DNA of 57,377 bases, the filler included, from Catajapyx aquilonaris (Eukaryota): assembly GCA_000934665.2 (NCBI GenBank). It is 2 parts of 2 records of this genome, joined end to end, with 100 filler letters (N's around TTAATTAATTAA, not from the genome) between each part and the next. Parts side by side here need not be neighbours in the genome. Positions count along the whole stretch, not along the records: positions 1 to 28,566 come from JYFJ02004899.1; 1 more part is not named here. One strand, given 5' to 3'. The position numbers were made by a program, and so were the translations under genes. Of this stretch, positions 3,442 to 28,666 are shown piece by piece. The notes under the pieces are model-generated. The model saw nothing but the letters and a program-made list of their open reading frames with translations, ran no database searches and was not told where the DNA came from. The number at the start of each line of letters is the position of its first letter. Positions within the stretch are counted from its first letter, which is position 1.

Positions 3442-3856
3442 TATCTTTCCATCATGTCTCTCATTTGACACACTAACGACTACTCAACCGTTCGTGTCAG
3501 GCATGCTACAGTACTGCGTCGCAACCTAGAAGGCATACGTGGCACAGAATAGGTAAGTGATCCAGCAGACATGGAATCGTTTGGAAGCCATAATTACATG
3601 AGCTATGATATTTTTGGGGTTTCCAAGTCTCCGTTGTTGCCAGAGCTGGTTGATATGATTCTAAACTTGCATAGGAGGTGTAATAATTAGCCCTGGAGTT
3701 CCACCGGTTCCATGTGTGTCTATTATCTTTCCATCTCGGCTCTCAGTTGACAGAGTAATGACTACTCAACCGTTCATGTCAAGAAGTGTACTGCGTCGCA
3801 ACCTATAGAAATCCTACGTGGCACAGAATAATATGTGAGTCATGGGGTCATTTGGA
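3442..3856 (+). repeat. Imperfect direct repeat (~3442-3585 and ~3724-3856) of the IR upstream region plus start codon
   Basis: Shared TATCTTTCCATC..GACTACTCAACCGTTC..GTACTGCGTCGCAACCTA..TACGTGGCACAGAATA..CATGG(AA/GG)TC(G/A)TTTGGA. Confidence 0.85.
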
Positions 3857-5854
3857 TGTGTGTTGGTGTGGCTGGTGACGATTGTGAGAATAGTGTTGGG
3901 AAATAACATTAGCCTGGACAAGGATTCGGAGGAGGACGAGTCTGTGTCCCGACTGGTGGGGAATGTCCTTCAGAGGGCGGATCTGGCTGAATGCACCCTG
4001 GTCACAGCCACCGATTCGGTCTCCTTCAGCGTCCCGATTCAGAAGCTCCTGATGGGACACTCGGACAGGTACCTGCCCAGCTTCCCCCTCCGGATGACCA
4101 CCTCCAAAAAACACTCGTTTGAGGACTACCCCTGGCTGGTCAGACAGGACCAGATGCACGACTTCACCACTGTCCCGCCTCAGCTCCTGTCCCGTCTCTG
4201 GCCCGGACTCTCCTGCACTTTGCACCTGTTCATGCCCACCCATGTCCACGCTCTGCCACCACTCGTCATGCACGCAGCCTCCTTGGTCAAGGTGGCTCCA
4301 GGGGAAGATCGATTCATCATTCACTTCAGGACTGATGGTCACACTCATCCTCATCATGCTCAGGAGGTAGGAGAGGTGCACAGGATCATGGCCCACTCCC
4401 CACCCGCCACCTCCCTCAGGCTAAAGGTCATGGTCACAGGGGATGGTCGGATAAAGGTGGACACGGTCTGCTTCCACTGCGCACAAGGAGGACACCCCCA
4501 AATACTGCCTCTTGGAGTGTTCGATCCATCAGATGAAGATCATGGAGACATTGTGAATCTCTTCTTTCGAGACTACGATGTCAAGAGGATGAATGGAAGG
4601 GTAATCAGAATTTCTTTCTACGTAGACATTGACTTGCCAGCTGCGAGGAAGCAGAAGGAGGCTGAGGGTGAGTTCATTATTGACTTGTACCCGAGAATGG
4701 CCATATTTGCGGAAGGTGCTCTACGCGGAAAAATGGAGTACACTACGGAGGAATTTCGAGTGGAGCTGGACTTTCGTTATTCCAACGGAACCTGGGGAGG
4801 GTTGGTGGGTAGTCTGGTGCAGAACAAGACCGATGCCTTACCATGCATTTTATCTTCGGATGAATCGTACTCATTCCTTAATATTCCCCAACCTTACATG
4901 TTCGCCTTTGGAACGGGCTTGACAAGGATCCCTCGAAGAATTGTGACCTGGAAGGTCATCTTCATGCCTTATCCTCTCTTGGTGTGGATGTTGATTGCAT
5001 TCAGCCTAATCACACTGTTTATTGCCTCATTTTATATATCCAAACGGAGACTTAACGCGACCAGTACTCTTTCATTTTCACAATCAGTCGGCCTCATTTT
5101 GCGAGCTCTGATGGACCAGGATATAAGCTTCAACACGAATAAATATTCACTCAGTTTCACTGCATGTATGCTCATGTTTGTGACCGTAATCACCACCGGA
5201 TACAGGGCCAAACTAGGGTCCTTCCTGACCTGGCCCCCAAAAGAATTTGTTCCAACCACTGGACAAGAAATAATAGATTCCAACTGGAATATGGAAGCGG
5301 ATATGTTAAACTATCTCATCCTAGGTCACTACTGTAAAATGGCTCAGGATCCCGTTTTGGTTGATATGTGTAACCGCATGAAAATGGGAGGCACTACCCA
5401 GAATTGTCTGCGTAAAACTGGAGATGACAACGTTGTCTGCGTTGGAGTGAGTGTTCTCCTTGAGCAGGAAACCTATCTTCACACAAGCAGTGATGGGACC
5501 TTGAACCTTCAGTACCTCCAAGAAGATAGATTCTCTGCGTATGCCTTTGCCGGTACTGCAAAAGGCCAAACCCAACTGTTTCACATTCAAAGAAAAGTGG
5601 TGGCCCTGGTTGTGGAAAACAATTTATTCGAAACTTGGATCAAGCACGAGAAGTACATGAACTTCCTCCGCAACCTGAGGAGGATCCTACAGGCGGAAGA
5701 GATCGCCGCCAAGACATACGTTCCAGATGAAGTGATGACAACGGTCAAGTTGAGAGCCATCTTCAACATTTGGCTTCTGGGCCTGCTGGGTGGTGTAGTG
5801 GTACTGGCGGCGGAAATAGCTCATTTTTGTCGAATAATGCCTGGTAGAATTTGA
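3842..5854 (+). CDS. Divergent ionotropic receptor (IR, variant iGluR chemoreceptor), intronless, 670 aa
   Basis: Hydrophobic signal peptide; S1 motif NGTWGGLVGSLVQNKTD; M1 IFMPYPLLVWMLIAFSL; pore-loop ILRALMDQ; TTGYRAKLGSFLTWP (SYTANLAAFLT equivalent); final TM LRAIFNIWLLGLLGGVVVLAAEI; short C-tail. Confidence 0.9.
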   Translation: MGSFGCVLVWLVTIVRIVLGNNISLDKDSEEDESVSRLVGNVLQRADLAECTLVTATDSVSFSVPIQKLLMGHSDRYLPSFPLRMTTSKKHSFEDYPWLVRQDQMHDFTTVPPQLLSRLWPGLSCTLHLFMPTHVHALPPLVMHAASLVKVAPGEDRFIIHFRTDGHTHPHHAQEVGEVHRIMAHSPPATSLRLKVMVTGDGRIKVDTVCFHCAQGGHPQILPLGVFDPSDEDHGDIVNLFFRDYDVKRMNGRVIRISFYVDIDLPAARKQKEAEGEFIIDLYPRMAIFAEGALRGKMEYTTEEFRVELDFRYSNGTWGGLVGSLVQNKTDALPCILSSDESYSFLNIPQPYMFAFGTGLTRIPRRIVTWKVIFMPYPLLVWMLIAFSLITLFIASFYISKRRLNATSTLSFSQSVGLILRALMDQDISFNTNKYSLSFTACMLMFVTVITTGYRAKLGSFLTWPPKEFVPTTGQEIIDSNWNMEADMLNYLILGHYCKMAQDPVLVDMCNRMKMGGTTQNCLRKTGDDNVVCVGVSVLLEQETYLHTSSDGTLNLQYLQEDRFSAYAFAGTAKGQTQLFHIQRKVVALVVENNLFETWIKHEKYMNFLRNLRRILQAEEIAAKTYVPDEVMTTVKLRAIFNIWLLGLLGGVVVLAAEIAHFCRIMPGRI

Positions 5855-8034: not shown

Positions 8035-8355
<321 letters not shown>

Positions 8356-8379
8356 TCAAGTTGGCTGCCGTGGTACGAT

Positions 8380-8515
8380 CCGCCTGGCCCACTACAGCAA
8401 GCGGTCCACCATCACCTCCCGGGAGGTCCAGACCGCCGTCGGCCTCATCCTGCCAGGGGAGCACGCCGTCTCCGAGGGGACAAAGGCCGTCACCAAGTAC
8501 ACCTCCTCCAACTAG
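8380..8515 (+). pseudogene. His2B: Histone H2B 3' fragment (pseudogene)
   Basis: [44 protein letters not shown]. Lacks the N-terminal two thirds and has a 9-nt deletion (LAK). Confidence 0.92.
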
Positions 8516-8544
8516 ATTCATCGCCATCTGACAACTAAACAAAC

Positions 8545-9219: not shown

Positions 9220-12200
9220 ATGGCCCCCGTGGACCTCGAGCTGATGATGGAGACAGTCTTTGACATCAAGCGTCTCCTGCTGGAGGATGTGCTGCCCCGA
9301 TTGGCCTCACTGGAACATATCCCACCTCAACTGGAGGCACTGGAGGAAGGTGTGGGCGCCCTGAAGGAGTGGGCCTGGTGTGGCGGGTGCAGAGTGACCA
9401 GTGAAGAGGAGGAAGAGGGTGAGTTGTTGTTGACCGGGTTCTGAGACACAAGGTGCGTGACTGGAATGTGCTTTATTATCTCTTCAGGTGCAGACGACAA
9501 TCCAGGCGACTTGCCTTCTGAAGCCGCCACTTCAGGCAATGCCCCAGTTGAAAGTGGAGATTCTGCGCCGCTGGGCAACACCAGAGTTGAATCGGACCAT
9601 TGCCAGACGGAAGAGTTAACAGTGGAGGATGATGAAGGCCCACAGCAGGGTTACGAAGACACTGCAGCTGGAAGTTCGTCAAACCCAAGTATATGTCATT
9701 ATATGCATTATTATGGTTTATTATGCATTTATGAATGAAAGGTTTGATGAGTGAGAAATATTGAAGTACTGTGTGTACTTAGGACTATTGTATGGGCCAG
9801 CCACTTGTGATCGCCAAATGAATGACACTGGCCTATATTTTGGGATTGTTATTGACACTTGCACCCTGGCTGAGTTTGTTCTTCTTAATTTTAGAAAAAA
9901 ATTCAAAATGATGATTATTTGTCTACAGATGGACAAGAAAGCACTGGTTGTGAGTTTTCATCCGATGGAAACATCAATTATTGTGGAGATATAGATGGAG
10001 TCACAGGCCAAACTGAGGGAAACTCTCACTCTGAAGCAGAAGTTGGAATTTCATTAAACACTGTGATCCAGGTAAAATGCTTTTCAGGTTGTTTGGCTGC
10101 CAGTGGATGAACAGCTGGGTAAATAGTCAGTGGAATTAGGAGGAGCAACTGATTATGCAGTATGGCTAAACACCAGCAATGTGCAATCAATGCTCAGCTG
10201 TGATACATGGTGTCCCAAAATCAGTTGGGAAAGTTCAACTGATCTTGTGGTAAAACCTTTGGCATTTCTGCATCAGCATAAGATTTTGCAGGATACTGCT
10301 GTTCTGGTTCCATCTGTCAGATTATGTCACGGTCAATTACGGTCTATATAAAGCAATTTAATCCTTGGTTTTTTTTCTCCAGGCCCCTGCAACTGAAATC
10401 TTGAATAACAGTGAACCAGTTCAGGTTGATGGGATTGTATGTGAAGCAAATGGCTCAACATGTGACTCAGCCAGTGGCTCCAAGGGAAGTGTAAACAGGA
10501 GGGAGTATCCAGCTGTAAGTAACATTGTTGGAACAAATTGGAGACTTATTGATCCTCTTATTCTTAGCAAAGTTGGGCCACATGAAAAAAATGTTTCTGT
10601 GAGCATTGGCTGGCCATGGACTATTGTCAATTCTAAAATGACTGGTAAATTAGAAGGCATGCAGTAACAGCTGACTTGTGAACATTTGGACACCATTCCC
10701 GACATCTTAGGCCTAAGGTTCACAGAGATCTCGTCACATTAGCATAATAACAATATAGCACGAGTGGGCAGCGATTCATAAAGATATTTCATCTGCACTA
10801 TGATCTCTCATGTCCTAGGGCGCTGCTTCTGAAGTGTCAGACAACTCTGAACCAAATGAAATTGAGGACTTGCTGTCCACTTCTGATGACACATCCAGTG
10901 AAAATGCAAGCAGAAGAAAGACCAGGAAGAAACGAGGATCTGTATGTATCATTGTGGGGAAAAGGGGCAACATTTTCTCTAATGGGAAATGCCTGGACAT
11001 AATGATTGAGCACAAGTGATTATTATCAGAAAAGTCATTTACATGCGTCAATTTCTTAAGAACTGAAAATTGACCTTTTGTAGGAGCAAAGGATTGAGTA
11101 CAATAATTAAATATTACATGACTGATGTTGGCAAATTTCAGGCTCCTGCATATAAGGACTCAGAGGACAGTGACCAGTCCTACTTGCCTGATGAGAGTGA
11201 CTCTGGGGAGGAATTCATTCCTCCATTTCGCTCAGGTGACGAGGCCTCTACTCTCCGAAAGATGAAGAGAAAGAAGCGAAAAGGAAAGGATCCAGCTATA
11301 AATGACATGGTAGGAACATCAGGGGTAGAATTTTAAAATTTTTGTCCAGATGCAAAGTTTGCACTGTAGACTTTCATCTGGAGTGTGCAAATCCGGGACT
11401 TGGAGTACTTAATTTTTAATTACAGGGTGTAGCCATGTTTAAAAGCAGAGCCAATTGCTCATTTTGGAGTGCAGATGACAATTTTGGAATCCAAATTGCA
11501 CCTTTGCATCCGAATATTTCGACCTCTAGAACATACACGACTTGCAGTAATATTTCTAATCCAGATACATTATTTCATTTCCTAGACTACTGCTTCTGAG
11601 GTCTTAGGCAGCTACGAAGCAGGTGAATTAGATGACCAGGATTGTGATCCGAAACCTTGCTCCGTGAACCCGGTAACATCGGAGCCACTCCGGAGCAGTA
11701 AATCCGGGTCAGGAGCGAGCGGAGCAAGGGTTCGGTTCACAACCCTGGTGGTGACATGCTGCACATTGCAGATTAGTTCTGACTAATAATTATACATCAA
11801 ATGAAAGAGAAAGGGAGTAGAATGCGCATAATTTTTTTCTCTCGCAAATGCACCCAGAAAAACGTGTCGGATTTCATCAGTCACATGTCCCAGAATTTGG
11901 GTCCATTAAAATTAATGGTAATTCAGCAAACATATCTATTCTTTTCTCTCGAGCCATGCATGCTGACGAAGGATTGAAACTGAACATATTGAATATTGTA
12001 TGGGTCACAACTCATGTCACCAAATATGGTCGCTCTTACGCAAATACATCACTAATTGTTGGGGTTTGCACACTTGGACATGTTACTGAGCATTTGACGG
12101 ATGGAGTGCCACACATGTTTCTATGAGTGCATTTTTCAGAAAAACAATTTTCATAGGAGCATTCTACCAGGATGTCTCTTTCATTTGACGCATATGTTGA

Positions 12201-13465: not shown

Positions 13466-14275
13466 TTCATCTTGGATTATCAGGAACCATTTGCATGAAA
13501 TGTTTTGCTGGGAAGAGTACAAATGCTCCATGAGGAGTTCCTGTTGATTTTAACCCCAAAATGTCAGCATATTGTAATTTGAAAAGTCTTTTCCCACCTA
13601 CATAGTATTCTTGGTGCTTTTCAGGGCAAGGATAAGCTGGAAAAATCTGAAAGAAAGACTCATCAGAACACCTCTTCCTTACACGGAAATGACAAAGGGC
13701 CTTCACCTGATTTGGACGCCATAAAAAAACAGGGGCAAAAAAGAACCAAGAAGCATCAGTGCATGCTGTGTTATTTCCAGGCTCAAAGGAAGAATGACCT
13801 TGCACGTCATCAGGTAGTTCACACTGGTGACAAACCATATGGTTGCAATGCTTGTGACAAGAAGTTTAACAGAAAGGAAACCTTAAAAAGACACAATGAC
13901 TCTGTCCACATTGGACTGAAGCGTTACTCTTGTGACTGGTGCAGTAGAAGATTTTCTCTGAAAGAAACGCTGGAGGATCACAAGAGGACCCACACTGGTG
14001 AGAGGCCATTTTCATGCATGGTGTGCAAAAAGTCCTTTGCTACAAGTAGTAACTGCAGGCAGCACATGAGAACTCATGATGTTCAAAGAAAGTTGCACTC
14101 ATGCTCCCATTGTAACAAAGCATTCACACGGAAAAGAGACTTGATTTCACATATGAGGACACATACTGGTGAGAGGCCATATTGTTGTGATGTATGTCAG
14201 AAGAGATTTAGGGATGGAAGTGTATTGTTGCGCCACAAGAGAACCCATACAGGAGAGCACGGGACCGCCACTTGA
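9220..14275 (+). CDS. C2H2 zinc-finger gene copy A (6 fingers). Predicted exons 9220-9418, 9488-9688, 9929-10071, 10383-10514, 10819-10941, 11142-11309 (cryptic donor), 13625-14275; ~538 aa; may be a pseudogene
   Basis: GT-AG exons homologous to copy B with open frame; TGEKP-type linkers. Original exon-6 donor lost, exons 7 and 9 not found, exon 8 (from 11586) disrupted by a MITE, finger 7 removed by a net 49-nt deletion. Confidence 0.7.
11320..11528. mobile_element. Old MITE in intron after exon 6 of copy A
   Basis: Ends CAGGGGTAGAA / TTCGACCTCTA (imperfect IR) flanked by GAACAT on both sides; internal GGAGTGCA-type repeats. The right half is also present in copy B (~19450-19590). Confidence 0.5.
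11637..11747. mobile_element. 111-bp MITE (hAT-like, 8-bp TSD) inserted into exon 8 of copy A
   Basis: TIRs CAGGATTGTGATCCGAAACCTTGCTCCG / CGGAGCAAGGGTTCGGTTCACAACCCTG; flanks TAGATGAC / GTGGTGAC. Copy B has the empty site GTGATGAC at ~20337. Confidence 0.85.
13200..13465 (+). mobile_element. Copy-A-specific insertion ending in AATAAA plus (TAT)n, resembling a 5'-truncated non-LTR retrotransposon tail
   Basis: Absent from the homologous intron of copy B (~21070-21095). AATAAA at 13371 is directly followed by the triplet tail. Confidence 0.45.
13378..13465. repeat. (TAT)n microsatellite, ~29 units
   Basis: Directly visible; explains the poly-I, poly-N and poly-L ORFs. Confidence 0.97.
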
Positions 14276-17418: not shown

Positions 17419-20400
17419 ATGGCCCCCGTGGACATGGAGCTGATGATGGAGACAGTCTTTGACATCAAGCGTCTCCTGCTGGAGGATGTGTTGCCCCGAT
17501 TGGCCTCACTGGAACATATCCCACCTCAACTGGAGGCACTGGAGGAAGGTGTGGGCGCCCTGAAGGAGTGGGCCTGGTGTGGCGGGTGCAGAGTGACCAG
17601 TGAAGAGGAGGAAGAGGGTGAGTTGTTGTTGACCGGGTTCTGAGACACAAGGTGCGTGACTGGAATGTGCTTTATTATCATTTTCAGGTGCAGACGACAA
17701 TCCAGGCGACTTGCCTTCTGAAGCCCCCACTTCAGGCAACGCCCAAGTTGAAAGCGGAGATTCACCAGTGCCTGTGGGCTACATAAAAGTTGAATTGGAA
17801 CAGTGCAAGACGGAGGAGATCACAGTAGAGAATGAAGGCCCACAGGGCTACGAAGACACTGCAGCTGGAAGGTCTTCAAACGCAAGTATGACACTATGAA
17901 TTATGCTCTATTATGCATTTATGAATGAAGAAGCCTGCCAAATGAATGACACTGGCATACATTTTGGGGATTATTATTGCTTACACCCTGGTTAACCGTT
18001 TCTCCTTAATTTTAGAAGAAAAAAAAATACAAATTAATGATTATTTGTCTACAGATGGACAAGAAAGCACTGGTTGTGATTTTTCATCTGATGGAGACAT
18101 CAATTATTGTGAAGATATACGTGGAGTCACAGACCAAACTGAGGAAAACTCTCACTCTGAAGCAGAACTTGGAATTTCATTGAACACTGTGATCCAGGTA
18201 AAATGCTTTTGATGTTGTTTGGCTCTCAATGGATGAACAGCTGGGTAAATAGTCAGTGTAATTAGGAGGAGCAACTGATTATGCAGTATGGCTAAACACC
18301 AGCAATGTGCAAGCAATGCTCAGCTGTGATACATGGTGTCTCAAAATTAGTTGGGAAAGTTCAACTGATCTTGTTGTAAAACTATTGGCATTTCTGCATC
18401 AGCATATGATTTTGCAGGATACTGCTGTTCTGGTCCCACCAGTCGGATTATGTCACAGTCAATTATGGTCTATATAAACCAGTTTAATCCTTGCTTTTTC
18501 CCCTAGTCCCCTAGATCTGAAATCTTGAATAACAGTGAACCAGTTCAGGTTGATGGGATGGTATGTGAAGCAAATGGCTCACCATGTGGCTCAGCCAGTG
18601 GCTCCAAGGGAAGTGTAAACAGGAGGGAGTATCCAGCTGTAAGTAACATTGTTGGAACAAATTAGAGACTTGATCCTCTTATTCTTAGCAAAGTTGAGTC
18701 ACATGAAAAAATAATGTTTCTGAAAGCATAGACTATGTGACCGTGGACTATTGTCAATTCTAAAATGCCTGGCAAATTAGAAGACATGCAGTAACACAGC
18801 TGACTTCTGAACATTTGGACCCCACTCCCCACAGTAGCATAATAATGATATTGATATACCTGCACAAGTAGGCAGTGATTCATGATAAAGTTATGTCATC
18901 TGCACTAAGATCTCTCATGTCCTAGGGTGCTGCTGCTTCTGAACTATCAGACAACTCTCAACCAAATGAAATTGAGGACTTGCTGTCCACTTCAGATGAC
19001 ACATCCAGTGAAAATGCAAACAGAAGAAAGACCAGGAAGAAACGAGGTTCTGTATGTATCATTGTGGGGGAAAGGGGCAACATTTTCTCTAATGGGAAAT
19101 GCCTGGACATAATGACTGAGCACGACAAGTGATTATTATCAGAGAAGTCATTTGCATTCTTCAATTTCTTAAGAACTGAAAATTCACCTTTTGTAGGAGC
19201 AAAGGATTGAGTACAATAATTAAATAGTACATGACTGATGTTGGCAAATTTCAGGCTCCTGCATATAAGGACTCGGAGGACAGTGACCAGTCCTACTTGC
19301 CTGATCATAGTGACTCTGGGGATGAATATATTCCTCCATTGCACTCAGGTGACGAGGCCTGTACTCTCCGAAAGATGAAGAGAAAGAAGCGAAAAGGAAT
19401 AAAGGTATGTTTTACAATAATTCTCTCCCGGGGCATGGCCACTGTATTTTTAATTACCAGTTGTAGCCATGTTTAACAGCAGAGCCAATTGGAGTGCAAA
19501 GTTTGCACTCCAAGGCTAAGTTTGGAGTGCAGATGAGAATTTTGCAATGCGAATTGCACCTTTGCATCAGAATATTTTGACCCCCAGAACATAGAGGACT
19601 TCCTCCCATTTTTTCAGGGATAATGACAATTTGTGGATTTAGTGTGTATTTTTTTATTGCATTGCCATGATTTCCCGCTTAATATTCCAGGTCTGTGGAA
19701 CTGGAGTCTCAGATGATGGAGGGGGAGCGAAGGATGCACCATCCTCATGTGAACCAGCTGGATGCCCAAGTGAAAGGTTGACCAGAAAAGCTACTGTGAG
19801 TAATTTTCTGGTAATTTATTGGATGCTTTCTTAATTCTCTAGAGTCTAGAGTCTAGATTAGCATGTGGAAACCTTGAAAGTGAAGAGTTCTCTGTTTTAT
19901 GTACCCTCCTTGCTGCTGGCAGGCACTCCCTGACAAGTATGGAAATGGGAAATGATTCTTTTTGAGTTCACCAGGGCAATTATTGAATAAAATATCCTTG
20001 CTGGAGTGGATCATTGAAGAGACCAAGTAAAGGGATAAGGTGTGCTACCATGGACAAGTAAAGGATATCTTCTTCATATCTTGAAGTAATTTTTGAATAA
20101 TTATTCACAAGGTCTAAATGCTCCATCCTGTCCTGCTAGCATTATGTCAGGTGAGCAGTAACTGATACCTTTTCACTTACAGTTAGATGCCATTGACATG
20201 GGAATTAGTTAACATGTGTGACATACTGCTGTGTGCCTAGGCCTTAGCCAGTAATATTATTTTCTAACCCTGATACCGTATTTCATGTCCTAGACTGCTG
20301 CTTCTGAAGACTTAGGCAGCTACGAAGCAGGGGAATGTGATGACATCCTGCCCATTGTAGAGTAGCTTCTGAGTTCTGACTAATAGCTCTTTCCAATAAT

Positions 20401-21961
20401 TCTCACCTTCATCCCACACTCCCTCATATGTTATTATCCACCATTGCATTGAGTTTGGTGGATTTCTGCACCTGGCAATGGCATTGTTGTGACAGTATTT
20501 GACAACATATTGTGAAAATGTACACATGTGGCCTTAGCAGCCATTTACGATGGTAATATTTTCCCAATACTGGTTCATACCCACAGACTACTGCATCAGC
20601 AACTGCAGATAAGTGTGCACCAATAGTGAGTGAGGGGGATGTATCAGCAGCTAAGGAAGCATCATGCGACACAGCCCATTCCTCCAGGAGAAGGGTGAGG
20701 AAGAAGAGACAAATCCATGTAAGCGATATGATATTATTATCATTTACAACTTGCCATGCCGGATAACATTACAACAAGTCATTGGTAGTTTGTGACAGAT
20801 TATTCAATATGCCAATTGCTCATTGAAAGAGGTATTGATTAAAAAATTATTTTGCAAGACTGCTTACACTGGTTCAAATGGTGTAATACAATGGGAGGGG
20901 AAGGTTTTAGGTACATTCATATCATTGGTTACACTTTGGGTGAAATGTTATCTCAATAATTCTGTCGCAATTTATATTGACATGAAAATAAATTCTATGC
21001 CCCTCCCTTTAAATTAAATTAAAATTTTTAAAGGAGAAAAAGTTCCTGGAAATGTTACATGCAGTTATTTACGAACCACAAAACTGAGTGCTGGGATTAT
21101 CAGGAATTTGCATGAAATGTTTTGCTAGGAAGAGTAAAAATGCTCCATGTGGCGAGTTCCTGTTGATTTTAACCCTGACATATCAGCAGATTGTAATATG
21201 AAAAGTCTTTTCCCACCTACATAGTATTCCTGATTTTATTTCAGGGCAAGGATAAGGTGGAAAAATCTGAAAGAAACACTCAGAACACATCTTTCTTACA
21301 CAAAAAGGACAAAGGGCCTTCACCTGATTTGGACGCCAAAAAAACCCAAGAGCAAAAAAGAACCAAGAAGCATCAGTGCATGCTGTGTTCTTTCCAGACA
21401 CAATGTAAGAATGACCTTGCACGTCATCAGGTAGTTCACACTGGTGAAAAACCATATGGTTGCAATGCTTGTGACAAGAAGTTTAGCACAGAGAAAAATT
21501 TAAAAAGACACAATGATTCGATCCACATTGGATTGAAGCGTTTCTCTTGTGACTGGTGCAGTAGAAAATTTTCTCAGAAAGAAATGCTGGAGAATCACAT
21601 GAGGACCCACACTGGTGAGAGGCCATTTTCATGCAAGGTGTGCAAAAAGTCCTTTGCTTCAAGAAGTAACAGGAGGAAGCACATGAAAACACATGATGTT
21701 CAAAGAAAGTTGCTCTCATGCTCACATTGTAACAAAGCATTCAAACGGAAAGGCAACTTGATTTCACATATGAGGACACATACTGGTGAGAAGCCATATT
21801 GTTGTGATGTATGTCAGAAGAGATTTGGGGATAAAAGCGTATTTTGGCAACACAAGAGAACCCATACAGGAGAGAAACCATACTGTTGCACTGTATGCAA
21901 TAAAAGTTTTTCTCGGAAATCAGATAGGGACCGCCACTTAAGAATTCACAAACTTGTGTAA
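17419..21961 (+). CDS. C2H2 zinc-finger gene copy B (7 fingers), apparently intact. Exons 17419-17617, 17688-17885, 18055-18197, 18507-18638, 18926-19051, 19255-19404, 19691-19795, 20294-20356, 20587-20718, 21245-21961; ~654 aa
   Basis: GCCATGG start; all introns GT-AG; phases 1,1,0,0,0,0,0,0,0 give a continuous ORF. Last exon encodes seven CxxC-x12-HxxxH fingers with TGEKP/TGERP linkers. Exon-8 donor (GTAGAG) is weak. Confidence 0.85.
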
Positions 21962-22640
21962 ATTACTCAAATCTCCAGTAATTTGAAGGAAGAGGTGAGT
22001 GGCCTTTGACTCTGAGGGACATATCTTTCTAAGTGCAAGTACTTCCATTCTTACTATGTCATATCAAGAGAATAAAATGAGTAAATGCATTACCTCTCAT
22101 CAAAAGTCAGGACTATTTGGTTGTAATATCATTTAAAGAAAAATTAATATTATCTTCAAAAATATACATATTGATGTAACTTGATGATGCAGTTCTTAGC
22201 TGCAATTTTTGATACAAGAAACATGTCAATTGAAGAATAATCTTTGCGCTATGGTGAGATATTTTGCAAGCCTCTATGCAGCACGAAATAGTGCAATCTA
22301 CTTTTGCTGGAACAGGTAAAACAAATGTCATTTAACTCCACATGCCTGCTTTTGTGACCTGAAAGGGGGAAAAGTTCCACAATTAGTAATTTGAAATGTT
22401 GATTTTTGCAATTAACTAATCAGTTGAATTAAAACTGCATTTCATTTTTTTTTCCATCAAGCCCTATCCATTACAAATCATGTTATATGAAGGAAACACA
22501 ATAAATCAATAGGGGGATTTGTAATCAGACAGAAAACATTATGTAAAATTGTACTAGCTGAATTTGATATCAATTGTGTATAATTTTTGTGTGGTTGACA
22601 CTTGTCTTGTTAGACTGAGAAAATAAAATAAAAATCATTA

Positions 22641-23870
22641 TCTATAATATTAAAATGCTTGCGTTGCATGTATAAGCCCTCTGATTGGTCCGCCCCCGTA
22701 TTGTTGCCGCCACCTCTTCCCATTGGCCCCCCGTCCATTGTTGCTGCGTCGTATCCATGGCGCATTGTTACCACGACGCCTCCGATTGGCCCCCGTTCCG
22801 AGCATGCGCAATGGGTGGGAGAACGCCACAGTCGCTTGCTGGACGTCAACGAGGACGCATCATTCTCCCCTCCCGCGAAGACACCTCTGCCCCTTCCACC
22901 TATACCCTTCTACCCACGTCTTATTCACGGTGACCTCACAACAGAGGAGGGGGAAAATAATGGAAGCCGTAAACAAGACGAACACTGGACTACGGTCGAT
23001 CGTTGTCTCTCAGTGCAGTGGTGCCAAACTGCCAACTCCGTGGTCGTTTATAAAGCAAAATACAATTTCAGTTTTTTAACCTTTTGACGGCGGAGTGTTT
23101 GAGCCATTGCCTTACCCCAAGGCCTGATTTCTTTTTCCCCTTTTCCGGATATTTGATGAAGAGTGATATTTTTAATGAATAATAATCCGCGGACTGCCCG
23201 GATTACCCGGATTACCTATCCTTACCTAAAATGACCCTGTGACCCATTTCTGAGGGGGGGGGGGCAGAGGTCAAGTGGCTGAAGTCGAGTTTACTCTTGG
23301 CTTGGTTAATGATGCTGTTGAGTCCGTAGCCAACAGTGTTACATACAACCCCGATTAGCCCAAAAAAAGTTAAATCCGTAAGAATTAATTTTTCTTTTGG
23401 TCAAACGTCAATACTGGTTAAAACCGATCAAGAGCAAATTTCAAATTATGGCAAACGCATTCATCCATAGGAAACAGTTCTCCTTAACCACCAACGCAAC
23501 GTGGGGTATTTTTCTACCCCACAATGTAGTTAATACCATCGCGATTAATAAATTTTGTATTAAATGAAAAATGGCAAGCCCATATTCCTCAGACATACTT
23601 TCTTCGATCCAAAGAAAAATTTTGACATCAGTAGAAATATTTTTTTGCGGAGTTACTGGTACTTTTATGCTGCTAAGCGTCCATGTGGGGTCCAGATAGG
23701 TATACCCCACGTCGCGTCGTAGCCAATGTACATAATTATTTAGAGAGAACATCACAGCACATCACAGCAAAATGGTATTTTATAAAGTGTGAGTGTTGTT
23801 ATTCAGCAATAAAATGATATTGCTCGGAACTAAAATCTTGCAGACCTAGCAGCTGGGAATGTTTACGTTA
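22641..23870 (+). mobile_element. Copy-B-specific insertion with Helitron-like 5' end
   Basis: Similarity to unit A breaks exactly at ATCATTA|TCTATAATATTAAAATG (A|TC start typical of Helitrons) and resumes ~23920. No convincing 3' hairpin-CTRR found; right boundary approximate. Confidence 0.4.
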
Positions 23871-24563
23871 TAAGTCATTACTTACGGCATCGAGCTGGAA
23901 GGCTACGAAGGTGCGATAACAGGATTGGGAAATCATAATTACAGGAGTATTAGCTCTGTTGGTGCACTGCACCGCAGAACACTGTTCGTCTGGACGAGAT
24001 ATGCCTTTGCTTTGTAAACAGACCTGTGGGTGGGCAATACCTGTACTATTTCTCATGGTCCCACTCACATTATTGTTTCTTATGAAACCAGAAGTGATGA
24101 TGAAAATATTAGTTATGATAATAATGATCTGTGGCGTGATATCATACTTTTTCCTTGCAACGAAGTGGGGTTCATAAGAGGGCTTTCCAGATCTCTGCAC
24201 CAACAAAATGGTAGTGGACGCATAATTATCTGGTATGCCCAACATGCTGGGAAACATGATCAGACATTTTGTCCATGCCGCACAGAGACGTTTCATATGG
24301 TCATTGGGTGAGAAGCTCTGCAGACTTCCACTTATTTTGTCTGTGCAGACTTTGTGATCTCATTAGCTGTGATTAATTCTGCACCCTGATCAAATGTTCT
24401 CTGTTCTTCACATGAGCATGAGCACAACAGCACCTTTCATGTGGTATTCTTGTAGTGACTTGCCATGATTGTGATGGGAGCATGCCATCATCCCATGTAA
24501 AAGCCTCTTCTGTGGATGAGAAGAGTCAAGTGCGACTGAAATGATCGTTACGTACTTCTTTAG

Positions 24564-24720: not shown

Positions 24721-26183
24721 AATATATTGATAGTTGGGTGGAATTATTGCTTATTTATGGGGTCAGAGGGTCTAATGAAATGGAGAAGTGAAAAAAAAAT
24801 GTAAGGTATACACTCTTGTGAAATGGTGCAAGCAGGGTTATATTTTTGGAACTACAGATAATCTTTCTCTATTCACAAAGCATGGCAAGACGTAATGATG
24901 GAGTGGCACACATCACCATCACAATGTCACCCTTTTGAAAGGGGTAGTGAATGGATGAGGTCAAATTTTCAAGCATTATGCTCAAAGGAAAAAAATCTTC
25001 CCTGCCAATATTTGTCTGTGATGTCATGAAATGCTCCTGAATTACAATGACCATTGGTTACTTCTCAAATTCATTTCAATTTAGCAATTTGATCAGTGCA
25101 TTAATGTAGATTAATTGATGACTTTATGTAATGGTGACCTCATTGTTACAGACTTATAAAATTTTTTGATGTATTGTAATTCGTTTTGCCTTGTAATGAT
25201 AGAATAATTATAACTTAGGTATATTGTAATATGAGTGACAGTTGACGAGTGGGCCTGGTGCGGGGGGTGCAGAGTGACGAGTGAAGAGGAGGAAGAGGGT
25301 GAGTTGTTGTTAACCGGGTTCTGAGACACAAGGTGCGTGACTGATGGAATGTGCTTTATTATCACTTCAGGTGCAGACGACAATCCAGGCGAATTGCCTT
25401 CTGAAGCCCCCACTTCAGGCAATGCCCCAGTTGAAAGGGGAGATTCAGCACCACTGGGCAACACCAGAGTTGAATCGGACCAGTGCAAGACGGAGGAGAT
25501 CACAGTGGAGGATGAAGGCCCACAGGGTTACGGAGACACTGCAGCTGGAAGTTCGTCAAACGCAAGTATGTCATTATGCTTTATTATGCATTTATTGATG
25601 AAGGGTTTTCTGGGTGAGAAATATTGAAGTACTCGGTGTACTTAGGCCTACTTGTACGCGCCAGCCACTTTGAGCCGAATGTTGGCTCTCATGTTACAAT
25701 GTTGCCATGCAGACTTACCATGCTTTTTAATGTGGCACTTTTGAATTACACTGGTTTTTATTGTTTTTAGCATATGCCTAACTGTTGTGGGGCACACACA
25801 GCAGATCATCTGAGACTGAGCTAAATTGAGCGAGCCAAGCCAGGCTAATTTCAATTCAATATTTTTACTTTTACATGTTTTTCTTCGAGCCTAGAGAGCT
25901 ATGGGTTGATAATTATGGTGCTGTAGTTTTCAAATTTTACCTGCAGCAGCAATGTCAAAAACCTGTAAATTACTTTGCAGAGAATCAATAATAATTTATT
26001 GGAGGTGTTTTGTAATGTTGTCCTGAGCAGTTAGTTGTCATTGTGACGTTTGTTCTGTTCAGATGCGTCGAAATGTTATAGTTGTAGGTGATTTTTCACA
26101 AACCAACCCTTCCATGGGCCACTTCAGTCAATTATAAAATTAACAAATTTTTGTCTATTTATGGAGTTGCTATATGTATGGTA

Positions 26184-26753
26184 CAGTGCTGGACACATTA
26201 GCCGTCGCTGAATGTTTTTTTCGAGCGGCAGCGGCGTAAACTTCCAACCCTGGCTGGCAGGCCAATTCAAACATCAGCCTAGGGAGAGTGCTTAGAGTGT
26301 CCTTTCCATTGTTGCCTCTGTTTACAAATCCAGTGAGTGACGCGGACCACTCAGCGACGGGTCTCTTCTGCCTGCTTACACATGATCAGTAGCAAGGGAT
26401 ACGGAGGGAAAAACGTGAAAATAATGATGTTAGAAGCAAGTCATTTTGTGGAAATGTTCCATGCTGGACTCAAAGAAATGTTTTCGTCCACAGCACAGGA
26501 AATATATTCCATGGCTGAGGAGGGGGTGACAATTAAGATCAGGGGTGTGCTAATTGAAAATGCCTCAACTGACGGATTCTTTCGGATTTTGTGTCTTTTA
26601 CACTGTGCTCTATGACGCTAAAAATTTTAAAAGTATTATTTTATTAGTAAGTTTAATAGACAAGTACCCAGCACGCCGCTCTTTCTGCCGGGAATAGACG
26701 GCGATACTTTTAAATACGTTTGAAATTTGTAGTGTAATAGGGCACGGTGTAAT

Positions 26754-26804
<51 letters not shown>

Positions 26805-27591
26805 TCCGGGGTAGTGCTGACCTCATCAGAGGTATGTAGCACGGACCTTTATTTATTTGTTGTGTACATTTGAGCCTTTATATGTAACGCCCGGGCCCAC
26901 GGGCAGAATGACAGGAGGGGATGTGCAAGGTGCAGTGCAATGTCTTAAACGTGGCCATTTTTAGTGAACTCCCCCGGGTGATTTAGTCTGTGGAAATGGC
27001 ACCCGAGACAAAGCCAGAGGTGACCCTGAACTCTGCACGAGATGAAGGGGGTGTCAAACACCTGTATCTTTAAAATCTGAAGCAAAATTGAGCAAGTTTG
27101 AACTTGCATCGTTAGGTTAGACTTTACTGAAGCACACTTGACTACTGCCAGCTCTTTAGCAGCAGAAGAACCTGTGCAAAAAAAAATAAAATGTAACAAC
27201 TGTGCAGGTGTCCCCTACAGGGGACACTCGACATATCTGGGTTAATTGTCACCCCCTCCTCAGCGATGGAATATATTTCATGTGCTGTGGACGAAATCAT
27301 TTCTTTGAGTCTACCATGAAACATTTTCCCAAATTGACTTGCTTCTAACATCATTATTTTCTCTGTTTCCCTGCGTATCCCTTGCTACTGATGATGTGAA
27401 GCAATCAGAAGAGACCTGTCGCTGGGTCGTCTGCATCACTCACTGGATTTGTAAACAGTGGCGACAATGGAAAGGACACTATCAGCACTCTCCATAAGCT
27501 GATGTTCGAATTGGCCCGCCGGGTGGGGTTGCCAGGTTACGCCGCCGCCAGAAAAAAAAACATTCAGCGACAGCTAATGTGTCCAGCACTC
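26184..27591. mobile_element. Non-autonomous Tc1/mariner-like element with ~350-bp diverged terminal inverted repeats
   Basis: Arms 26185-26536 and 27242-27590 are reverse complements; ends TA|CAGTGCTGGACACATTAGC ... GCTAATGTGTCCAGCACTC|TA. Confidence 0.8.
26755..26804. repeat. (AAT)n microsatellite, ~16 units
   Basis: Directly visible. Confidence 0.95.
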
Positions 27592-27594
27592 TAC

Positions 27595-28043
27595 CAGGGA
27601 GCATATACTACATAAGAGGCGCAAACATTCGATTTTTTTCGTCTCTCTGTTTATCGTGTTGCCAAGGCTGGCGGCCATCTTGAAGTGTGTGGTATGTCAA
27701 CGAGGTATAAATAGGGTACAGGCAGGCCGTCAAGGTCCGCGGAGGTCCGCCATCTTTGATGGTTTTGGCTGCCATGGAAATACATGGCAATAACAATTTA
27801 CTTACCCATTTTCCAATATCGAATTCAAATTCGCGCGTGTTCTTGCAGTGTGGGGGTTGCCATGGCAGCCAAAACCATCAAAGATGGCGGACCTTATTTT
27901 TGCCTGTACCCTATTTATACCTCGTTTGCATACCACACACGTCAAGATGGCCGCCGGCCTTGGCAACGCCCTATAAACAGAGAGACGCGAACAACAATGG
28001 CGCCGACAGAAGTTTGCGCCTCTTATGTAGTATGTGCTCCCTG
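27595..28043. mobile_element. Foldback-type MITE (~450 bp, arms ~185 bp)
   Basis: CAGGGAGCATATACTACATAAGAGGCGCAAAC ... GTTTGCGCCTCTTATGTAGTATGTGCTCCCTG; flanks ACTCTAC / ACTTTAC (7-bp TSD, one mismatch). Confidence 0.85.
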
Positions 28044-28566
28044 ACTTTACTGTACAGTAGAATGTACAGTATTCTCAGAATCCTGCCAAATGAATGACAC
28101 TGGCCTATATTTTGGGATTGTGATTGCTTGCACCCTGGCTGAGCTTGTTCTTCTTAATTTTAGAAAAAATACTAATTGATGATTATTTGTCTACAGATGG
28201 ACAAGAAAGCACTGGTTATGATTTTTCATCTGATGGAGACATCAATTATTGTGAAGATATGGATGGAGTCACAGACCAAACTGAGGGAAACTCGTCTCAC
28301 TCTGAAGCAGAACTTGGAATTTCATTAAACACTGTGATCCAGGTAAAATACTTTTGATGTTGTTTGGCTGCCAATGGATGAACAACTGGGTAAATAGTAA
28401 GTGTAATCCTACAAGTACAAGAGAGTTGATTTAGTGTATTTTTTTTTTCTCATTTTTTTCCCTTTTGCTCCTTAGGAAGTGGATGAGCTTCTATACTACT
28501 CAGACTGTATTTATCCTTGATTTATGTAGTATGTGTATTGGAGTTGAGTCCCCCCAAATATCCCGT

Positions 28567-28666
28567 NNNNNNNNNNNNNNNNNNNNNNNNNNNNNNNNNN
28601 NNNNNNNNNNTTAATTAATTAANNNNNNNNNNNNNNNNNNNNNNNNNNNNNNNNNNNNNNNNNNNN
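28567..28666. other. Assembly spacer: 44 N + TTAATTAATTAA + 44 N
   Basis: Exactly 100 nt and symmetric; the 12-mer has stop codons in all six frames. Confidence 0.92.

Follow-up and report, generated by a model that had tools for sequence, protein, structure and literature searches.

Two neighbouring zinc-finger genes in the 286 Mb genome of Catajapyx aquilonaris differ most at the residues through which their fingers would touch DNA, raising the question of whether selection has driven these positions apart after duplication or whether one copy is simply decaying. The initial annotation favoured recent duplicates retargeted to new DNA sites, with transposons as an example. Here we define both genes and their close paralogs, measure how fast each class of residue has changed, and weigh what could have driven the change.

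Gene structure and surrounding repeats

The window, the whole 57,377-nucleotide stretch of DNA analysed here with filler included, contains two tandem C2H2 arrays, with six fingers in gene A (13760-14248) and seven in gene B (21377-21949), on the single contig (C2778) that makes up positions 1-28566. A and B are tandem C2H2 (Kruppel-type) zinc-finger genes (Table 1). In the gene B model, nine exons bounded by GT..AG sites encode 633 aa free of internal stops, and the gene A model has seven exons and an open reading frame of 538 aa; the last-exon boundaries of both genes are those given in the initial annotation. The B fingers score over cut-off for PF00096 and PF13465 and have C-x2-C-x12-H-x3-4-H spacing and TGEKP-type linkers, an anatomy from which we infer sequence-specific DNA binding. 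No Pfam family scored over cut-off in B exons 2-8 or the stretch before the fingers, and no HP1-type PxVxL or CtBP/Groucho-type motif was found in the B exons. Gene A lacks counterparts of B exons 7 and 8, and in its last exon a 49-nt deletion after finger 6 takes out finger 7, with a resulting frameshift that reaches a stop within a few codons. Sequence comparison found no homologue of B exon 8 in the paralogs C4049a, C5907b and C6511 either.

Table 1. Features of the window, with positions counted along the whole stretch
Feature	Position	Strand	Description
Gene A exon 1	9220..9418	+	N-terminal domain as in B exon 1
Gene A exons 2-6	9488-9688, 9929-10071, 10383-10514, 10819-10941, 11142-11309	+	
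Gene A last exon	13625..14275	+	Six C2H2 fingers
Gene B exon 1	17419..17617	+	66-aa N-terminal domain: two helices, then W-C-G-G-C motif and acidic run; lineage-specific; X5 contig piece 17394-17607
Gene B exons 2-7	17688-17885, 18055-18197, 18507-18638, 18926-19051, 19255-19404, 19691-19795	+	Linker, acidic and rich in Ser/Thr, including basic patches
Gene B exon 8	20587..20718	+	GT..AG joints to exon 7 and last exon in run X5
Gene B last exon	21245..21961	+	Seven C2H2 fingers, intact
Third partial tandem copy	25247..28342	+	Exon 1 3' 52 nt; exon 2 25371-25565; exon 3 28197-28342; contig end 28566 in intron 3
Probable gene-conversion tract	9220..9532 vs 17419-17732	+	Exon 1, intron 1 and first 45 nt of exon 2; 4/307 differences
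MITE-like small inverted-repeat insertion	11638..11745		A last intron; multi-copy in genome
Multi-copy repeat insertion(s)	22642..23915		3' of B
Element with 358-bp terminal inverted repeats	26179..27596		Inside third copy; multi-copy in genome

In run X5, which belongs to a second study, a contig with a depth of about 4 passes directly from 19795 into 20587 and from 20718 into 21245, with GT..AG ends at both joints, and these joints indicate a spliced transcript of B; the expression evidence for B is this one low-depth run, of unrecorded type. The exons of A lie outside its coverage, which does not argue for silence of A. Over 21245-21609 and 21679-22069 the X5 contig letters all agree with the window. 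A possible further exon at B 20295 was left out of the model, as it is passed over by the X5 joint and, A aside, has no counterpart in the paralogs. The third copy breaks off at the contig end within intron 3, and C4049a (L061:1-400) begins in intron 3 at the start of its own contig; the assembly may have cut a single gene into these two pieces, and no overlap was found between the third copy (25247-28566) and contig C4049.

The abundance of transposons claimed in the initial annotation is confirmed by three multi-copy insertions in or beside A, B and the third copy. They returned 224, 3575 and 1253 first-look candidates in the genome, and the 40 of each that were scored are mostly 80-96% identical. 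The smallest insertion, in A, has an apparent degenerate 8-bp target duplication and sits in an exon-like stretch whose counterpart in B is at 20295.

Contact residues have changed faster than neutral sequence

At helix positions -1, +2, +3 and +6, the six fingers of A carry the codes RNDR, RETR, LETD, TSNQ, RRDS and DSVR, and the corresponding fingers of B carry CNDR, TKNR, QEMN, SSNK, RGNS and DSVQ, followed by a seventh finger, RSDR, that is gone from A. All of the shared codes are as first reported, and a recount returned the same 12 changed residues among 24 contacts. The Cys/His scaffold and linkers are, as also claimed, nearly unchanged, with differences at 5 of 64 positions and every zinc ligand kept. 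Across 169 collinear codons, contacts differ far more often than other residues (12/24 versus 20/145, Fisher p=1.7e-4), and the excess holds once scaffold and linkers are removed from the comparison (12/24 versus 15/81, p=0.0034); helix positions -2, +1 and +5 differ at 7 of 18 places. Pairwise contact dN between A and B is 0.30, compared with a dS of 0.095 and a corrected non-coding divergence of 0.091 (134/1564 sites, 8.6%) that lies close to dS. The 14 non-synonymous contact differences in 57 sites exceed both the synonymous differences (9 in 101 sites, p=0.008) and those in non-coding sequence (p=3.7e-4).

We fitted codon models to the paralogs with our own GY94-type, F3x4 implementation and naive empirical Bayes rather than with PAML, using 238 codons in classes fixed beforehand (28 contact, 21 other helix, 189 rest). 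The B finger region has 277 matches in the genome, among which a close clade of eight copies, A and B included, shares 67-100% identity with B. Models were run on three sets: the five closest copies (close5), five copies with seven intact fingers and A excluded, and all eight; "intact" was judged on the last exon, and C4049a and C6511 are cut upstream by contig ends. C6706 and C433z, too distant and used for the tree alone, were kept out of the models together with the remaining finger matches of the 277.

Contact omega was 3.87 in close5, 3.59 in the five copies without A and 3.47 in all eight, with 2dL against omega=1 of 30.8, 36.6 and 50.0, respectively; other helix positions gave 1.6-1.7 and the rest 0.58-0.65. 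None of 60 simulations with neutral contacts reached the observed 36.6, the maximum being 6.9. Site models fitted to the codon alignment of family members, the check first proposed for this locus, were likewise significant in our code, with 2dL of 29.0 and 51.3 in the five-copy and eight-copy sets for M8 versus M8a and of 29.0 and 52.9 for M2a versus M1a. Contact positions make up 9 of the 12 sites with posterior >0.8 in the five-copy set and 8 of the 13 in the eight-copy set; at posterior >0.95, only 1 of 4 and 3 of 7 sites are canonical contacts, and the remainder lie at +5, +4 and a single beta-strand position. Contact changes were thus fixed about 3.5 times faster than neutral after duplication, and the proposal of positive selection on contact residues is upheld across 5-8 paralogs (contact omega 3.5-3.9, 2dL 31-50). 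We consider it very probable that positive selection acted on the DNA-reading residues (-1, +2, +3, +6) in this paralog family. The linker exons of A and B have a pN/pS of 0.76, which together with the non-contact omega of 0.58-0.65 points to weak overall constraint, and some copies may be dead.

Probable gene conversion and a conserved domain at the 5' end

The count of 3 differences in 199 nt of exon 1 given in the initial annotation is correct, but its use as a conserved baseline does not hold, as the near-identical tract also takes in intron 1 (0/63). Along the tract, the 4 observed differences compare with about 26 expected from the 8.6% background (binomial p=4e-8, for a tract chosen after viewing the data), and states common to A and B are missing from C5907b and the third copy. 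This 5' near-identity is most simply read as gene conversion between the neighbours, and because exon 1 lies inside this tract it serves as neither a neutral nor a purifying baseline. Assembly collapse was considered as the origin of the near-identity and judged unlikely; contigs from DNA runs show one other letter in the tract, in one run.

Across the genome the exon-1 domain was located at 20 places (window 17419-17617 and L082-L100), a few of them protein-identical and one partial. It spans 45-66 aa, is helical, ends in W-C-G-G-C and contains a leucine-rich segment once or twice. The domain fronts at least two kinds of finger array, with weaker versions ahead of C4049b and C128. Its omega of 0.32 (2dL 43.4, 16 of 20 copies) shows that it is under purifying selection, and structure prediction returned two helices (pLDDT 86, pTM 0.44). 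The domain matched 0 Pfam families, and individual members of its alignment reached a best E of 0.01 to LRR_15 in 3 of 16 cases. The best ESM Atlas score, 0.83, was not convincing, a word-indexed search retained 0 of 68 candidates, and Foldseek returned 0 matches in the PDB. Six matches from a profile search of 1.84 billion representatives were rejected, as they covered the central leucine-rich repeat alone and belong to unrelated repetitive or coiled-coil proteins.

Lineage history and competing explanations

The description of A and B as recent duplicates needs correcting. The two are not sister copies: the last exon of B groups with C4049a, and background divergence between A and B is about 9%. 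Finger 1 sharply separates A, B and C4049a from C5907b and C6511, and fingers 2-6 do not. The copies are mosaics produced by recombination, so branch assignments are approximate. On the reconstructed B branch, 8 contact, 3 other-helix and 9 further amino-acid changes stand beside 7 synonymous-only changes, and the C4049a branch has 10, 2, 1 and 5 in the same classes. To the A branch the reconstruction assigns 18 amino-acid changes, 2 at contacts, 2 elsewhere in the helices and 14 at the remaining positions, along with 2 synonymous-only changes. Replacing each branch by a fully neutral one improves the fit for A by 2.3 lnL and worsens it for B by 7.1 and for C4049a by 12.3; when estimated freely, omega in A is 2.15 for contacts and 1.76 for all other positions (p=0.046). 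Copy A is probably decaying or recently relaxed. The idea of recently duplicated, retargeted genes therefore holds in part, with contact selection on the B and C4049a branches and relaxed constraint in A instead.

These branch patterns bear directly on a simple alternative, in which A is dying, its differences from B are neutral, and their concentration at contacts is only apparent because the scaffold is constrained. The lost seventh finger and the two absent exons fit that account, as does a terminal branch on which 18 amino-acid-changing codon changes accompany 2 synonymous-only ones and omega=1 is an adequate description; the family-wide non-contact omega of about 0.6 is in keeping with it as well. 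Decay nevertheless predicts a contact omega of about 1, not 3.5, and the A branch carries only 2 contact changes. The excess persists without A (2dL 36.6), so decay of A is not its cause, and contact pN exceeds intron and flank divergence. The initial annotation had set its proposal against a contact dN/dS no higher than the rest of the exon or the neutral intron divergence, and both comparisons came out the other way. Decay is a likely description of the recent history of A and is largely refuted as the origin of the contact excess, for which we regard it as very improbable. Conversion or finger shuffling that brings in tracts from distant paralogs, or a mutation hotspot, could also inflate helix differences: conversion is evident at the 5' end (4/307), segment trees disagree, with finger 1 grouping unlike fingers 2-6, a PHI-type test detects recombination (p 0.009-0.022), and 3 of the 9 synonymous A/B differences sit in contact codons. 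Such an artefact would raise synonymous change in the helices too, and the fitted multiplier for helix codons is below 1 (0.4-0.7, p 0.11-0.25), with contact dN above the helix synonymous rate (2dL 21-29). With four segment-specific trees, contact omega is still 3.58 (2dL 44.7), and we consider an artefact of this kind improbable.

Positive selection on the contacts is accordingly the reading we retain, and what drove it is less certain. Fast-changing repeat DNA, either transposons or satellites, may be the likeliest driver, a view supported by analogy that we hold with about evenly divided confidence. Nearly as much weight goes to real selection with a driver other than transposons, among them host regulatory sites, satellites, heterochromatin, recombination marking, and RNA or protein reading. 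The selected sites at +4, +5 and a beta-strand position suit such a driver, and in insect ZAD-ZNFs a pure transposon arms race is not favoured in the available text of Kasinathan et al. 2020 (PMC7655104). Against it, in KRAB-ZNFs and FiNZ-ZNFs contact-focused selection in young paralogs is the pattern linked with targeting of transposons in the part of one report consulted (PMC10547256), and the Catajapyx genome is rich in multi-copy inverted-repeat elements that are 80-96% identical. Within the group of non-transposon drivers, a PRDM9-type role is argued against by the fingers of B, which differ throughout and form no near-identical, homogenised minisatellite, and by the result that KRAB, SSXRD and SET were not found in gene B. 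PRDM9 shows an excess of amino-acid change at the same -1/+2/+3/+6 positions; unlike PRDM9, diversification here is among paralogs rather than alleles.

Comparison with known zinc-finger families

In KRAB-ZNFs, which bind transposons and recruit TRIM28/KAP1, the KRAB module is conserved on its own N-terminal exon, as is the exon-1 domain of this family. Contact-residue positive selection is already well known in vertebrate zinc-finger expansions, and positive selection at base-contacting residues among paralogs, a KRAB-ZNF trait, is found here. In the accessible part of Emerson and Thomas 2009 (PMC2604467), selection in vertebrate KRAB-ZNFs falls on helix positions -1, 3 and 6, less often on 2 and 5, and the fly and mosquito expansions analysed there gave no significant signal. 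The same text describes tandem clusters, last-exon fingers, contact selection and gene conversion between paralogs in tetrapod KRAB-ZNFs, features that the Catajapyx family shares. Gene B differs from KRAB-ZNFs in having no KRAB (PF01352) match in exon 1, exons 2-8 or the pre-finger stretch, a long multi-exon acidic linker, and, as in A, an array of 6-7 fingers only. A search for KRAB across the genome returned 0 matches, but so did its controls, and the count therefore carries no weight on absence.

The best functional analogue is the FiNZ-ZNF group, which, as described in the sections of Wells et al. 2023 available to us (PMC10547256), likewise combines a lineage-restricted N-terminal domain, rapid C2H2 duplication and contact selection. 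That text reports selection in 4 of 7 zebrafish clades with contact enrichment in two, highly variable base-contacting residues in further species, and transposon repression by cyprinid FiNZ-ZNFs. The exon-1 and FiNZ domains, which belong to different lineages, were compared by description, and none of the six profile matches is recognisable as a FiNZ-type domain.

Insect ZAD-ZNFs resemble this family in their N-terminal domain, variable linker, C-terminal C2H2 array and birth-and-death turnover, and in the consulted part of that work selection in Drosophila falls mainly in linkers (PMC7655104). The genes here differ in having one Cys-x-x-Cys in exon 1 rather than four Cys, a predicted two-helix fold, and selection on finger contacts instead of linkers. 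There is no Pfam match to ZAD (PF07776) in exon 1 or the linker exons, and the 9 places in the genome with ZAD matches are all on other contigs; these matches, like the iGluR-like gene described below, fit a probable arthropod. Hemipteran ZF271-like/APEZ genes, in the available text of Panfilio et al. 2019 (PMC6444547), form lineage-specific tandem C2H2 clusters with pseudogenes, varying exon structure and fingers as the sole domain, and that text gives no site-level dN/dS test; the clusters are alike, and the conserved N-terminal domain sets the present family apart.

In evolutionary pattern the family is thus KRAB/FiNZ-like, built on a new scaffold, and it is not a member of the KRAB-ZNF, ZAD-ZNF or PRDM9 groups. 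The best 120 matches listed for the finger exon contain no ortholog: none exceeds 50% identity, and all belong to generic poly-finger proteins. Literature titles and abstract openings, with thin coverage of subscription journals, contained no report of site-level contact selection in arthropod zinc fingers, which is weak evidence of novelty.

These observations are best explained by a tandemly duplicating, lineage-specific family of transcription factors, in which each protein has a helical front end, an acidic linker under weak constraint and, encoded by the last exon, at most seven fingers. After duplication, contact residues diverged adaptively, mostly on the branches to B and the other seven-finger paralogs; copies traded sequence by conversion or recombination, and A, probably under relaxed constraint, lost finger 7 and two exons. 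By known C2H2 biology, the contact changes would shift the DNA motif bound by each paralog, and the common front end would tie every paralog to one partner or oligomer, so that a constant effector would be paired with a variable reader as genes of the family arise and are lost by birth-and-death turnover. Transposon repression by the family would be a speculative further step, about evenly balanced against other targets. It is possible, though doubtful, that the exon-1 domain is an independent arthropod analogue of KRAB and FiNZ, a helical module with a Cys-x-x-Cys tip that forms oligomers or brings in a silencing partner, present in about 20 genes that differ in their finger arrays, with the contacts in an arms race with young inverted-repeat transposons; if so, an arthropod would have a protein-based, sequence-specific transposon defence beside small-RNA silencing. 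A clear case in a probable arthropod with a front-end domain that matches no database supports repeated origin of the constant-effector, variable-reader design among animals, a view put forward in the part of the FiNZ study consulted (PMC10547256). The spliced seven-finger gene B, its close paralogs with different codes and the candidate repeat families together make a testable set.

Other arrays and features

Finger genes beyond the close clade fall into further groups. Contig C433 holds a large tandem array of six-finger genes (L010-L013, L015, L017, L018, L020, L024, L026 and L028-L030) with 42-53% identity to B and highly variable contact residues. A second class has long arrays of 12-16 fingers (L014, L021, L022 and others), in some of which identical fingers follow one another, as with seven successive copies of one code in L014; this suggests internal tandem amplification.

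Elsewhere in the window, positions 28567-28666, just beyond the end of C2778, consist of two runs of N around a 12-nt palindromic AT-only stretch, probably a linker artefact. At 8035-8531, two broken histone fragments, one H4-like on the - strand and the other H2B-like on the + strand, lie tail-to-tail; they were recognised by eye from their translation. A 671-codon uninterrupted open reading frame at 3839-5854 (+ strand) weakly resembles ionotropic glutamate receptors, with GluD1 chains as the best match (E 2.7e-6); we take it to resemble divergent ionotropic receptors, and it probably encodes a divergent ionotropic chemoreceptor.
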